Notes under the pieces: model-generated | Seen by the model: the letters and a program-made list of their open reading frames with translations, nothing else | Told to the model about the DNA's origin: nothing | Databases searched by the model: none | Part shown: one piece after another, positions 4,564 to 52,751 of the stretch | Layout: each line of letters begins with the position of its first letter | Numbering within the stretch: position 1 is the first letter of the stretch | Made by a program: the position numbers and the translations under genes | IMG/VR virus record: IMGVR_UViG_3300025735_000294 | Location: 1-64,000 of that record | Source: a virus | Taxonomy: Duplodnaviria > Caudoviricetes | Length of the DNA: 64,000 nt | Reading direction: 5' to 3' (one strand)

Positions 4564-4857
4564 TAAGGGCCACCTGCGGTATGGTGGCCAAAAGCATTTA
4601 CTCCCCCACCACAACATTTCGTGCGACAGCTTGTCTCTTAATCAACTTGTAGTTGATCTCTTAATGATCACACCATACTATGTATGTACGGCAATGCACC
4701 GTACATGATTCGTATGAGTACAAAAGCAGGCCGTACACAATTTGAAAGCAGTGCCTATAGGCTTCTGGCCTAGAAAATACACTTAAAGCCGATGGCTTAA
4801 TATATATCAAGGGAGTTGACCGCCCTTCCCAAATCACGGGCAGTCGAGGAGAAATAA

Positions 4858-10757: not shown

Positions 10758-12557
10758 GTGAGTACAAAAGATATCCAGCCAGCTCGCCTACGCGAGCAAG
10801 AGATCGTGTCCCGTGCGGGTGACGTGATGTCGATGACCGTCGGCGCTATTCATGATGCCGCAGGTAACATGCTCCCGGACCATACATTAATCCGTTCAAA
10901 CATCTCGTCTGCTATTAAGCAGAACGGCGGTGTAATGTTCGAAGCAGTTGGTGAAGAATTCGGCGTACAGGTCATGGGTGCCTGGGCAGATTCGATTGAC
11001 CAATACCGTGATAAATATGGTGCATATCCAGCCATGGATGTGCTGGCAAATGCGCATAAATCTCTCGAAAATTTGATGCTGGAATGCGCACCTAACAAAG
11101 AGCATTCAGGAGAAGGCAAAGCCATGTTCGAATCCGTGCAGTCAATGCGCGAGTCCGACGGCGTAATGCGTCTTGCCTTGTATGCAGCGTTGATCCTTCC
11201 GGCAGCGCTGGGTGCAGCCACTAGCGATGCATGTACTTTCATTCCGTGTGAACGCGACAAATCAGACATCTATGAACTGATTAACATTGCGGGTACTAAC
11301 TTCGGTACGTTTAAGCCTGGCGATGAGCTCAATATGCAGAGTGCGGGTGTTTATACCCAAATGCTGCGTCTGTATCAGCTCAAAGAGAAGGGGGATGGCA
11401 CTAAAACCGCCTTCAAGTTTGATATCAAAGACCACGAAGGGCAGACCTGCCCAATCCGTAAAGGCTACAACAAGCTTCTGATCAACCGTAAACCATCAAA
11501 AGTTGATGACAGCGACGGTAACTTGTATTTCAACGGCAATGACAGCTTTGGTGAAGCCTTCTCTGCGACTGCGAAGGTTGATTACGAAAATGGCATCATC
11601 GATATCACCTTTACTGAACCGCCAGCTGAAGGTACTGAAATTGCTGTTCGTGTAGAGATTAACATCGAGCAAAATCCTAAGCTGATCCCGGTTATTAACC
11701 AGGCGATGCGTAGCTATTCTGTGTATCCGTCTCAATACGTTGTTGCTTCAGAGCATACGGTTATGTCTGGGTCATACGCGAATCGTGAATTCGGTATCAA
11801 CATGCAGGCAACTCAGTTCTCTGCAATGCGTAACCTGCTTTCCCATGAGCAGGACATCATGCGCCTGCGCACGTTGGTATTCCATACTGTATTCGGTCGC
11901 AAATTTGATGTGGCTATGCCTGTCACTCAAAACTTTGAGTCATGGGTCGGTATTATGAAGCATGTGGTTAATGCTCTCAGCCAGGATATGGCCAACCGCA
12001 CACTGACCACCGGTATTCGCGGCGGCTTTGCTGGTGGAGATGCCGCAAACTTCCTGCGCTCTTTGCCTCCTCAGCACTTCCAGCTTGCACCTGGCTACGT
12101 CCAATCCCCATACGTCCAGTACATTGGCACGCTCTTCGGCACTATCCGCATTTATGAAGTGCCAGCGCCAGTATGTCAGCAGTTCATGGAACAGGGGTAC
12201 GATCTCGGTCTGGACGATATTTATTTCTACGGTCGTGGGGATGATATTGGTAAAGCTGGCCTTATCGCCGGTGATGCAGTCCCTGCCATTCCATACGTGC
12301 ATGAAACAAACCCAAGCCTGGTTAACCGCACTACTCTGTGGGGATCGGCAATCAACGATGTTCACCCTCGAAACGGCGAAAACTACTTTGCTCGTTTAAC
12401 TCTGACCCACGCGAAGGACGGTGCCATTGACTACTTGACGGGTCAAGTGAATGGCACCTCAGGTACGGTTGTTGAGGGTGTAACCCTTTCTCCCGCTTCG
12501 ATCACGGTTTCCGCTGGTGATGAGATCACCGCTGGCAACACCAAAAAAGATTCCTAA
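10758..12557 (+). CDS. Major capsid protein precursor (P1 gp23-like) ending in the first strands of an Ig-like domain
   Basis: 599 aa; MFES site at ~aa 122; YAALILPAALGA, HETNPSLVNRTTLWG; upstream of sheath; tail VEGVTLSPASITVSAG is a Big_2 start. Confidence 0.88.
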   Translation: MSTKDIQPARLREQEIVSRAGDVMSMTVGAIHDAAGNMLPDHTLIRSNISSAIKQNGGVMFEAVGEEFGVQVMGAWADSIDQYRDKYGAYPAMDVLANAHKSLENLMLECAPNKEHSGEGKAMFESVQSMRESDGVMRLALYAALILPAALGAATSDACTFIPCERDKSDIYELINIAGTNFGTFKPGDELNMQSAGVYTQMLRLYQLKEKGDGTKTAFKFDIKDHEGQTCPIRKGYNKLLINRKPSKVDDSDGNLYFNGNDSFGEAFSATAKVDYENGIIDITFTEPPAEGTEIAVRVEINIEQNPKLIPVINQAMRSYSVYPSQYVVASEHTVMSGSYANREFGINMQATQFSAMRNLLSHEQDIMRLRTLVFHTVFGRKFDVAMPVTQNFESWVGIMKHVVNALSQDMANRTLTTGIRGGFAGGDAANFLRSLPPQHFQLAPGYVQSPYVQYIGTLFGTIRIYEVPAPVCQQFMEQGYDLGLDDIYFYGRGDDIGKAGLIAGDAVPAIPYVHETNPSLVNRTTLWGSAINDVHPRNGENYFARLTLTHAKDGAIDYLTGQVNGTSGTVVEGVTLSPASITVSAGDEITAGNTKKDS

Positions 12558-12596
12558 CCACGTTTAGCCCCCGGCTAACGGGGGAAAGGATTGAAA

Positions 12597-12887
12597 ATGC
12601 CTCAGATCATCAAAGTAACTATCTTGCCTGAAAACGCAACGGATAAAGCTTTCACTATCAGCTCCAGCGATCCTGAGATCGTTGAGGTTCAAGCTGATGG
12701 CGTCTCATGCAAAGTGGTCGGCAAAGCGGGCGAAAAGGCCACACTGACCGTCACCACACATGATGGCGAGTACACAGCTGAATGTGAAGTCACAGTAAAG
12801 GCAGCTGACGTCCAGGTAGAAGGCGTCTCTGTTGACATTGATTCTACCGAAGCCGAAGAAGGTGAAACCATCACCGTTACGCTGTAA
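12597..12887 (+). CDS. Small Big_2 (Ig-like) capsid-decoration candidate, apparently circularly permuted
   Basis: VTILPENATDK...SSSDPEIVEV...ATLTVTTHDG..TAECEVTV then VQVEGVSVD...GETITVTL; own RBS AAAGGA. Confidence 0.75.
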   Translation: MPQIIKVTILPENATDKAFTISSSDPEIVEVQADGVSCKVVGKAGEKATLTVTTHDGEYTAECEVTVKAADVQVEGVSVDIDSTEAEEGETITVTL

Positions 12888-12935
12888 CTGGTATCCCCAG
12901 TAATGCTGGGGTGCCTTTTCTGACAGGTAGAAACA

Positions 12936-14618
12936 ATGAATAAAATTGCATTCTCAGTGGGGCAGGCCGCCGAAACAGCAGTAATGGCTGTGAACGCGGA
13001 TGCAACACTAACCAGCGCGAGTGGTGGCGCTTCTGTTTTCGCTGGTTTGGTCATTTCTCGACGTGGCCAACCAGGTAAAGTCCTTTCTGTTACTTCGGCT
13101 ACCTACAGCTCGGTACTCGGTGAACCAATTCACCCGCGAATGGGAGCATCATTTGAGCCGTACCGTCATGTCGAACGCGCAGTAGCTGGTGGGAACGGCG
13201 TGGTAGTTCGTGTATGCGCACCGGATATGAAAATACCGGGGCTGTCATTAGCGATTGGCGCGTCAGCATATGACGCCGACAATGTAGCAGTTGAAAGCGT
13301 ATCGCTGGGCAGCTCCTCTTTGGATCTCGTAGAAGGTTCCGCTTTAAACTTTGAGCTATCAGAAATTGATAGTGAAGAGGGGTTAATTACCAGCGAAGTA
13401 ACGTTTGGTCCTCATGTCGTGCCGGAACTGCCGGATGGTGCAGTGCTAATGCTGTACATCAAAGATGGCGACGCTTCGGCAAATCGCACGTTATCAATTG
13501 AGACTGAAGAAGACAGCGATCTTTTTACCATCTATCTGCGCGAGGTGCTGGCAGATGGCTCAGTTTCCGTACTGGAAAGCCACCAGGCTTCACTTAATCC
13601 ATACAGCGTAACGGATATGGGCGAACCGGCATGGCTTCAGACAGTGCTGGAAAATGGTTCTACTCGCCTTGCGGCCTTAGTCGCTGACGATGCAGAGGAA
13701 GTGCTGGCAGAGGTAGATCTTAATCTCCCGCAGACCTACTTCACCGGCGGCTCTGACGGAGATTTAAGTGGTATCACGTCGAAGGAATATCTGACAGCAC
13801 TCACGACCTTGGAAAATTCCAATGTCAACTTTACCGCTTTGCTGTCCCTGGGATGCTATGACGCAACTGTACTTGCCGCCTTGAACACACTGGCTGAAGA
13901 AGTTCGGGTTGATATGTTCTATGACCTGAAAGGCAATCAGCTCGCAGAAAAGGCTATCAGCGAAGCAGAGAGCCATGGTCTTTCAGGTTCTCACCAGCCT
14001 GCGCGATATTACTTCCCATACAGCTGTCGCGATAAATCCACCAGCATGAACGTTGTGTTTGGGATCAGCTGTGATGCGTTTGTCGCAAAAGCAAAAGGTG
14101 TAGCGCTTATTCCGGATGTTGGCGGCTGGCATTATGCCCCCGCCGGTTCTTCTCGCGGGGTTATTTCTCGTCAGAACATCACACCAATCGCGAACCTGGA
14201 TGTTATCGACCGTGAAGCGTTCGTGAAGGCCCGTATTAACCCAGTATGTATTGGTTCCGATGGTTCAGTGGTTATTGATGATTCATTAACTACCTATGGA
14301 AAAAACAACTATCTCCGCTTCCAGCATGTTTCGTCACTGATGAATGCGATAGCACGCGACTTCTACGCCATCGCCCAGGCTGTTAAGCACGAACCCGACG
14401 GCGTAACACAGAAGTCCCTTACTGATGCGATGAGTAACTTGCTGGACCGTTATTTCGCCGCTGATGCGCTGGTGAAACCGCGTGATGACTCACAAGGTAC
14501 TGAGCCATACATCCTGACGGTCAAACAACTCGAAATCGACTACTGGCAAGTTGAATGGGCTGTATGCCCAACGGGAACCGCTCGCCGGATCATCGGTAAA
14601 CCAATCCTTATGCGCTAA
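12936..14618 (+). CDS. Contractile tail sheath protein (P1 gp22-like)
   Basis: GWHYAPAGSSRG, RINPV, DDSLTT, LRFQHVSSLMN, CPTGTARRI sheath C-domain motifs. Confidence 0.9.
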   Translation: MNKIAFSVGQAAETAVMAVNADATLTSASGGASVFAGLVISRRGQPGKVLSVTSATYSSVLGEPIHPRMGASFEPYRHVERAVAGGNGVVVRVCAPDMKIPGLSLAIGASAYDADNVAVESVSLGSSSLDLVEGSALNFELSEIDSEEGLITSEVTFGPHVVPELPDGAVLMLYIKDGDASANRTLSIETEEDSDLFTIYLREVLADGSVSVLESHQASLNPYSVTDMGEPAWLQTVLENGSTRLAALVADDAEEVLAEVDLNLPQTYFTGGSDGDLSGITSKEYLTALTTLENSNVNFTALLSLGCYDATVLAALNTLAEEVRVDMFYDLKGNQLAEKAISEAESHGLSGSHQPARYYFPYSCRDKSTSMNVVFGISCDAFVAKAKGVALIPDVGGWHYAPAGSSRGVISRQNITPIANLDVIDREAFVKARINPVCIGSDGSVVIDDSLTTYGKNNYLRFQHVSSLMNAIARDFYAIAQAVKHEPDGVTQKSLTDAMSNLLDRYFAADALVKPRDDSQGTEPYILTVKQLEIDYWQVEWAVCPTGTARRIIGKPILMR

Positions 14619-52674: not shown

Positions 52675-52751
52675 GGCCCTTTAGCTCAGTTGGTTAGAGC
52701 AATCGACTCATAATCGACAGGTCGCTGGTTCAAGTCCAGCAAGGGCCATCA
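52675..52751 (+). tRNA. tRNA-Ile2 (CAT anticodon, lysidine type, reads AUA)
   Basis: Cloverleaf GGCCCTT..TAGCTCAG.TGGTTAGAGC..CTCATAA..GGTTCAAGTCC..AAGGGCC-A, closely like E. coli ileX; ends TCA rather than CCA. Confidence 0.9.

Follow-up and report, generated by a model that had tools for sequence, protein, structure and literature searches.

Immunoglobulin (Ig)-like capsid extensions made by programmed −1 frameshift are known from phage T3 gene 10 and Lactobacillus phage A2 (Fraser et al. 2006, as cited in PMC5009743). A related arrangement is described here in a 64,000-nucleotide stretch of viral DNA (Duplodnaviria; Caudoviricetes), positions 1 to 64,000 of IMG/VR record IMGVR_UViG_3300025735_000294, referred to below as the window. 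Its major capsid protein ends with the first strands of a Big_2 Ig-like domain, and a separate small open reading frame (ORF) immediately downstream encodes the rest of that domain followed by a second copy of the first strands. As in the frameshifted Ig capsid extensions, there is a slippery heptamer at the capsid 3′ end in relatives, with a presumably minor product and an exterior Ig-type sequence, and in-frame and frameshifted versions coexist among relatives. However, the known frameshifted extensions are whole Ig-like domains, whereas the extension described here comprises strands A–A′ only (24 amino acids), and the remainder is a separate gene product.

The nearest solved folds to the body (strands B–G) of the small protein are the C-terminal Big_2 domain of lambda gpV (2L04, 7T4F), phi29 gp8, and mycobacteriophage Douge gp8, all of which are surface Ig-like domains on phage structural proteins. 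Unlike here, these domains are complete and covalently fused, and the N-terminus of the small protein offers no equivalent of about 17 N-terminal residues in the gpV domain. T4 Hoc and T5 pb10 are separately encoded Ig proteins that occupy capsomer centers after assembly, as is proposed here for the small protein. Both contain complete Ig domains and a dedicated capsid-binding domain, whereas here the completed Ig fold would itself be the anchor.

Chaperone-usher and type V pili are built from Ig-like subunits that lack an edge element and carry a spare copy of it as a terminal extension, which is also the sequence anatomy of the small protein. In pili, the spare element serves the next subunit and gives head-to-tail non-covalent polymers; here, polymerization is a proposal. 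Pilins lack the C-terminal strand G and have an N-terminal donor, whereas the small protein lacks the N-terminal A–A′ segment and has a C-terminal donor. The locus also differs from pili in encoding no chaperone, usher, or protease, and its primer would be the coat protein of a virus. Engineered split-Ig pairs of the SpyTag/SpyCatcher type resemble the proposal in that a β-strand tag docks into a strand-deficient Ig-like partner. They are man-made, derive from CnaB2 domains, and are locked by an isopeptide bond, a chemistry that is not evident in the small ORF system. The literature searched contained no account of a phage capsid with a split Ig domain, which does not in itself prove that none exists. 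The parts are familiar singly, and the combination of a two-strand frameshift or fusion, a separate strand-deficient body, and a spare tag appears to be without counterpart in that literature.

A Big_2 domain divided between two genes

The small ORF (12597–12887, plus strand) encodes a protein of 96 amino acids and shares the capsid frame in the window. Pfam Big_2 (PF02368) matches its residues 6–65 on profile positions 23–79 of 79 (E 7.6e-7), and the score of 29.4 bits, against a cut-off of 22.8, places it in the family. Because the match begins at position 23, profile positions 1–22 are missing at the protein's N-terminus. It does not contain a whole Big_2 domain in native order on one chain; its A–A′ segment instead comes after strand G.

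A canonical Big_2 profile, built from 16 unrelated canonical domains of large proteins, divides the locus into three pieces. The capsid ends with a 24-residue tag, fused in frame (12465..12536, plus strand), that corresponds to Big_2 strands A–A′ and aligns to profile positions 6–26. Residues 1–70 of the small protein (12597..12806, plus strand) form the Big_2 body, strands B–G without A–A′, as defined by Pfam, the canonical profile, and an AlphaFold2 model; residues 5–70 fall on profile positions 27–89. Residues 71–96, followed by TAA (12807..12887, plus strand), form a spare A–A′ tag, with residues 70–95 on positions 3–28. All three pieces share one split point at profile positions 26/27. 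An earlier note, made from the letters of the window alone, had claimed that the capsid ends with the first strands of a Big_2 domain and that the next ORF, with its own ribosome binding site, starts at the following strand and ends with an N-terminal-type segment; the profile coordinates bear out both statements.

The fit of the tags was compared with chance by scoring 3000 composition-preserving shuffles against the A–A′ region of the canonical profile. None of the shuffles outscored the window capsid tail, either of the two small-ORF C-termini tested, or the corresponding capsid extension of the L025-type relatives described below; the real fit was beaten by two of the 3000 for the L020 extension and by seven of the 3000 for the D6 extension. 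In addition, the spare tag is recovered at E 1.5e-5 by a tag profile built without sequences of the window lineage.

The join between strand G and the spare tag is no longer than the normal inter-domain join in tandem Big_2 arrays, and a profile of the small protein matches such arrays end to end across repeat borders (profile 2–91). By alignment, the small ORF spans one repeat length of tandem Big_2 arrays, in a register offset by about 25 residues. The order of its elements is permuted relative to the parent domain, as in a circular permutant. A search with the small-protein profile covered 1.84 billion proteins and found no other small permuted forms, although its results were swamped by giant tandem Big_2 proteins. 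Hits outside D6-like elements (L093–L129, Rosemountvirus BP63, and others) were rejected as ordinary complete Big_2 domains within large proteins.

Conservation of the split among relatives

Scans with the capsid and the small ORF over viral, genome, metagenome, phage, and plasmid collections returned about 85 capsid–sheath loci, 51 of them distinct. The system is present in 30 distinct loci that belong to four lineages: the window with contig L007; the type of phage D6; the L020/L042 type; and the L025 type, to which the complete Enterobacter plasmid pJBIWA008_2 belongs. All 30 have the capsid tag, a stop, a GC hairpin, a strong Shine-Dalgarno sequence, the body, and the spare tag. Every small protein of the family begins at strand B and ends just past the motif G[DE]xxTV, and the capsids of the four lineages share 72–76% amino-acid identity with that of the window. 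The remaining 21 distinct loci (P1-like, Pantoea, and Enterobacter types) have 46–48 nucleotides (nt) between capsid and sheath genes and contain neither tag nor small ORF. The family occurs in 122 sequenced plasmid prophage records; D6-like phage-plasmids are common in E. coli, Salmonella, and Shigella.

The stops that separate the two ORFs are reproduced in L007, an independent contig 99% identical to the window, and the exact small protein is present on three contigs; the split is therefore not an assembly artifact. Viral, genome, metagenome, and plasmid collections were also screened for a fused capsid–Ig ORF; about 30 distinct related loci and 119 plasmid records contained none. Neither of the outcomes that the earlier note had named as refuting its reading was encountered. 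Comparison of D6 with L020 gave ratios of nonsynonymous to synonymous differences (pN/pS) of 0.16 in the body, 0.29 in the spare tag, and 0.53 in the −1-frame capsid extension; the two other reading frames of each segment have higher ratios. Purifying selection acts on the body and the spare tag. The split Ig anatomy is confirmed as real, being neither an assembly error nor gene decay.

A frameshift signal in D6-like capsid genes

In the D6, L020, and L025 types, the zero frame of the capsid gene stops at ...NEKK or ...EEEKKSE, and the tag, encoded in the −1 frame, occupies the position that the in-frame tag has in the window. Every locus of these types has GAA AAA AAG at the junction, which is the heptamer A_AAA_AAG framed for tandem −1 slippage, followed by an open −1 frame with Ig-type sequence. 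The L025 extension frame opens four codons ahead of the heptamer and contains no ATG, GTG, or TTG, so it can be expressed by frameshift only. The window itself has no slippery site, its capsid tag being in frame. In E. coli, A_AAA_AAG ranks with the heptamers most prone to shifting, and none of the 306 genes with the highest expression contains it (PMC5009743), which makes its conservation at the end of a highly expressed capsid gene meaningful.

The extensions are 24–35 amino acids long and cover canonical-profile positions 4–27 only; none is a complete Ig domain. The earlier note had cited frameshift as a usual means of adding Ig domains to capsids, and these relatives do employ it, but only for the tag. 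Retention of a recoding signal merely to append 24 residues argues that the tag has a partner. Furthermore, the in-frame fusion in the window and the frameshift in its relatives together indicate that the tag is destined for the coat protein. The tag would be present on every capsid copy in the window phage and on a fraction of copies in D6-like phages. A frameshift-stimulating structure common to the lineages was not found; downstream of the heptamer, the folds vary among lineages and their z-scores are weak.

Taken together, the sequences indicate that D6-like major capsid genes contain an unannotated programmed −1 frameshift whose sole product is capsid plus tag. A conserved recoding site would thereby be revealed in the major capsid gene of these phage-plasmids. 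In GenBank, the D6 extension appears as a separate 34-residue 'orf50' that starts from a TGATG overlap (MF356679; L001 5730–5846). RefSeq plasmids leave the extension unannotated and list only a 'capsid protein' and an 'Ig-like domain-containing protein'.

Proposed completion of the Ig domain on the capsid

In the proposed mechanism, one Big_2 domain is encoded in two polypeptides and would be rebuilt non-covalently on the virion. The major capsid protein would display an exposed C-terminal A–A′ tag, and the body (strands B–G) would be unable to close its β-sandwich natively without an A–A′ segment. Once inserted, the capsid tag would complete the fold and hold the Ig domain to the capsid exterior, close to the capsomer center. 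In P1, the A-domain is the final domain of gp23 and makes the capsomer center (PMC12810830; PMC9024508), and P1 is without a decoration protein (PMC9024508; PMC12810830). The tags map exactly to the part that is missing from the body, with a single split point, which supports completion in trans. Completion of the small protein in trans by the capsid tag, with anchoring of an Ig domain, is considered moderately probable. The split anatomy, its conservation, the frameshift signal, the single split point, and purifying selection are seen in the sequences, from which tag–body binding, its stoichiometry, the chain, and the function are inferred. As in donor-strand systems, the sequences combine an incomplete Ig-like subunit with a spare terminal element of the missing type; the dedicated chaperone, usher, or protease of those systems is not encoded in the locus.

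The spare tag could serve in either of two ways. It might feed the next copy of the small protein and so give a head-to-tail Ig chain, or it might transiently cap its own free protein until displaced by the capsid tag. Non-covalent chain growth through the spare tag is a plausible but tentative suggestion, less probable than the anchoring step. It is also doubtful, if conceivable, that the small protein is a self-propagating Ig block in which capsid tags, and perhaps sheath tags, prime Hoc-like donor-strand fibers on head and tail. Equally speculative is the idea that frameshift efficiency determines how many primers D6-like phages have, with the highest possible number in the window phage, at all 775 coat subunits if T=13 as in P1. 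The likely role, as is usually proposed for phage Ig-like domains, would be weak adhesion to carbohydrate or mucus surfaces.

Structure models were used to examine the small protein. AlphaFold2 was run on a 10-row alignment and gave five models, which span a predicted local distance difference test (pLDDT) score of 89 for the best to 48. Residues 1–70 of the model superpose on lambda gpV 177–246 with a Z-score of 7.0 and a root-mean-square deviation (rmsd) of 2.3 Å over 68 residues at 29% identity. No strands are assigned in model residues 67–96. Alignments to tandem arrays that include the tag have an rmsd of 6.5–11 Å, which suggests that the tag is folded back in cis in the model. Strand-swapped proteins are commonly closed in cis by monomer predictions, so AlphaFold2 does not separate the cis from the trans arrangement. 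The two termini of Ig-like sandwiches lie at opposite poles. This geometry, together with the short join between strand G and the tag, suggests that the spare tag points away from its own body and favors trans.

Several observations weigh against docking in trans. The C-terminal tag of the top small-protein model has a pLDDT of 88–93 and looks docked in cis. For a pseudo-fusion proxy (window 12462–12884, Gly in place of TAA, together with two D6-type rows), the AlphaFold2 model was too poor to use, with a pLDDT of 46.6, and the stored ESMFold model has a pLDDT of 0.53. Single tags are so short that the E-value of each alone is non-significant, and the window capsid tag reaches only E 2.8 with the tag profile that excludes window-lineage sequences. 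The pN/pS value of the extension is based on just 20 differences. Lastly, the tag-bearing loci probably form one clade, and the co-occurrence of tag and small ORF then counts as one evolutionary event. Both strand donation from the capsid and the growth of Ig chains had been put forward in the earlier note. The former stands as the most economical inference from the four-lineage split, the three-lineage frameshift, and the selection data; the latter is the weaker part, as the AlphaFold2 model looks cis.

The small protein may instead be a self-sufficient circular permutant whose own A–A′ segment closes the fold, in cis or by reciprocal exchange within a closed dimer or oligomer. Such a permutant would derive from a tandem Big_2 array that acquired a new start and a new stop, and the order B–G then A–A′ is what such a duplication-and-truncation route predicts. 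Virion attachment, if any, would then depend on other contacts, and the capsid tag would be otherwise employed or a mere competitor. The top AlphaFold2 monomer, which holds the C-terminal tag at a pLDDT of about 90, agrees with this reading, but closure in cis is the frequent outcome of monomer predictions for strand-swapped proteins. Native-register closure in cis is also made sterically hard by the short join and the opposite-pole termini. Moreover, the conserved 24-residue capsid tag, and a frameshift site that makes nothing else, would be left unexplained. Overall, a self-closing permutant is regarded as rather unlikely.

It has also to be asked whether the arrangement is debris, namely a decaying capsid–Ig frameshift extension that was cut by an inserted terminator and is now functionless. 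Ig-like extensions do spread by non-homologous recombination, in or out of frame by chance (PMC5009743), and P1 and the Pantoea/Enterobacter group manage without the system. Decay is nevertheless highly improbable, given the identical boundaries in four lineages whose capsids have diverged from the window to the extent stated above, the purifying selection on body and spare tag, the retention of slippery site, Shine-Dalgarno sequence, and start, and the presence of the family in 122 sequenced plasmid prophages.

If the trans completion of the domain by the capsid tag is correct, it would represent a natural split-Ig docking system on a virus and a viral counterpart of donor-strand exchange in pili. 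It would also be a third route to post-assembly capsid decoration, besides fusion and dedicated capsid-binding domains. Phage D6 is cultured, which leaves the system open to direct testing. A natural tag of 24 residues with a partner of 70 residues would furthermore be of practical interest for phage display.

The intercistronic region

The two ORFs of the window are separated, as the earlier note had observed, by two TAA stops and a hairpin. The capsid tag is followed by a short basic tail, NTKKDS, and the first TAA (12537..12557, plus strand; TAA at 12555). A GC hairpin of six pairs, CCCCCG/GCUAA/CGGGGG (12568..12584, plus strand), holds the second TAA of the capsid frame (12576–12578) within its loop. 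The hairpin abuts the Shine-Dalgarno sequence AAGGA (12586–12590, plus strand), which lies 6 nt ahead of the ATG at 12597. A TTG start at 12591, given in the ORF list, was rejected as too near the Shine-Dalgarno sequence.

A GC hairpin lies directly 5′ of the Shine-Dalgarno sequence in all four lineages (for instance L010 ~4806–4826 and L025 ~4823–4843), and its stem sequences differ among them. The distance from the tag-frame stop to the hairpin is 6–13 nt in three lineages and about 20 nt in L025. The hairpin was dismissed as an intrinsic terminator; it has no U-tract, and a terminator scan did not call it. It could act in mRNA stability or attenuation. Terminating ribosomes might also open it and thus couple synthesis of the body to synthesis of the tag, an idea that is merely noted here.

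After the tag, the Lys-rich tail is longer in D6-type and L020-type capsids, whereas the L025 type lacks it and L018 and L066 have it frameshifted; these differences indicate that it is not conserved. In L018 and L066 (~4770–4811), a change in A-run length alters the frame of the tail (…KAQKKQSRSKAKTRP) and leaves the tag untouched. This suggests that the tail is dispensable; alternatively, the A-run change could be a homopolymer sequencing error.

The region bears on the possibility that capsid and small ORF are covalently joined by readthrough, bypassing, or suppression into an ordinary capsid–Ig fusion. The common frame of the window ORFs is compatible with such recoding, as is a hairpin after the stop, which recalls the T4 gene 60 bypass site. 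However, the matched take-off and landing codons of a gene 60-type bypass are absent: TCC, the last sense codon, does not occur near the ATG in the window, and landing on the only AAG close to the D6 start would put the ribosome in the wrong frame. In D6-type loci, the capsid stop and the small-ORF start are 146 or 147 nt apart, so that the small ORF continues the frame of the capsid in some and that of the extension in others, and in D6-like loci generally it occupies either of two frames relative to the extension. This variable frame and the strong Shine-Dalgarno sequence in every lineage, with a conserved ATG, indicate that the body is a separate polypeptide. The sole tRNA gene in the 89.9-kb genome is a tRNA-Met (CAU) at 52675–52748, and no suppressor tRNA is present. 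A readthrough product, in addition, would put about 26 extra residues into the A′–B turn. With two TAA stops to pass, no suppressor tRNA, no matched codons, and no fixed frame, covalent joining is very unlikely and the least credible of the readings considered.

A candidate third tag in the tail sheath

The tail sheath gene that follows the small ORF contains an insertion of about 39 amino acids at residues 106–156 (13251..13403, plus strand), identified as an alignment gap relative to P1 gp22 and replacing 12 residues of that protein (109–120). Domain III of gp22 projects outward, and the insertion site is its start (PMC10304247). Within the insertion, residues 117–141 (13284..13358, plus strand) form a candidate third A–A′ tag that aligns in register with the capsid and spare tags. 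This segment is the third-best tag-profile match among 1432 six-frame ORFs of the window (E 0.007), and none of 3000 shuffles scores higher against the canonical profile. The insertion is found in all 30 distinct loci with the small ORF and in none of the 21 without it.

The sheath inserts of D6 and L025 are weaker matches to the tag profile (E 0.13 and 0.15), and the D6 insert does not stand out against the canonical profile. A profile that excludes window-lineage tags gives E 3.1. The tail may thus carry a docking tag as well, which is a lead and not an established part of the system.

Locus context

The head–tail junction in the window belongs to a P1/D6-like phage genome of 89.9 kb that is complete and has terminal repeats. 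The major capsid protein gene (10758..12557, plus strand) encodes a P1 gp23 homolog of 599 amino acids, identified by phmmer and by identity to D6. It matches the P1 Gp23 structure 9ukm at E 1.5e-157, query residues 39–564 aligning to chain residues 37–561, and this full-length homology makes it a P1 gp23-type HK97-fold major capsid protein. The capsid gene of phage D6 has 72% nucleotide identity to it. Its C-terminus is about 35 amino acids longer than that of P1 gp23, and its terminal residues are ...GTVVEGVTLSPASITVSAGDEITAGNTKKDS, followed by TAA at 12555–12557. Relatives without the system (L003, L006, L027, L046, and L053) have variable low-complexity capsid tails, such as GETAPEAAATGTGTGS and long AQAEAEAAAA...KSTKTTK runs. 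The variability of these tails indicates that the gp23 C-terminus tolerates free extensions.

The tail sheath gene (12936..14618, plus strand) encodes a P1 gp22 homolog of 560 amino acids (phmmer against P1 Gp22 8jaj, E 9.1e-121). The capsid and sheath genes are the only neighbors of the small ORF. Between the small ORF and the sheath gene is a terminator-like hairpin with a U-tract (12895..12921, plus strand), which has a 7-bp stem with five GC pairs, the tail UGCCUUUUCU, and a fold energy of −20 kcal/mol (z −2.2).

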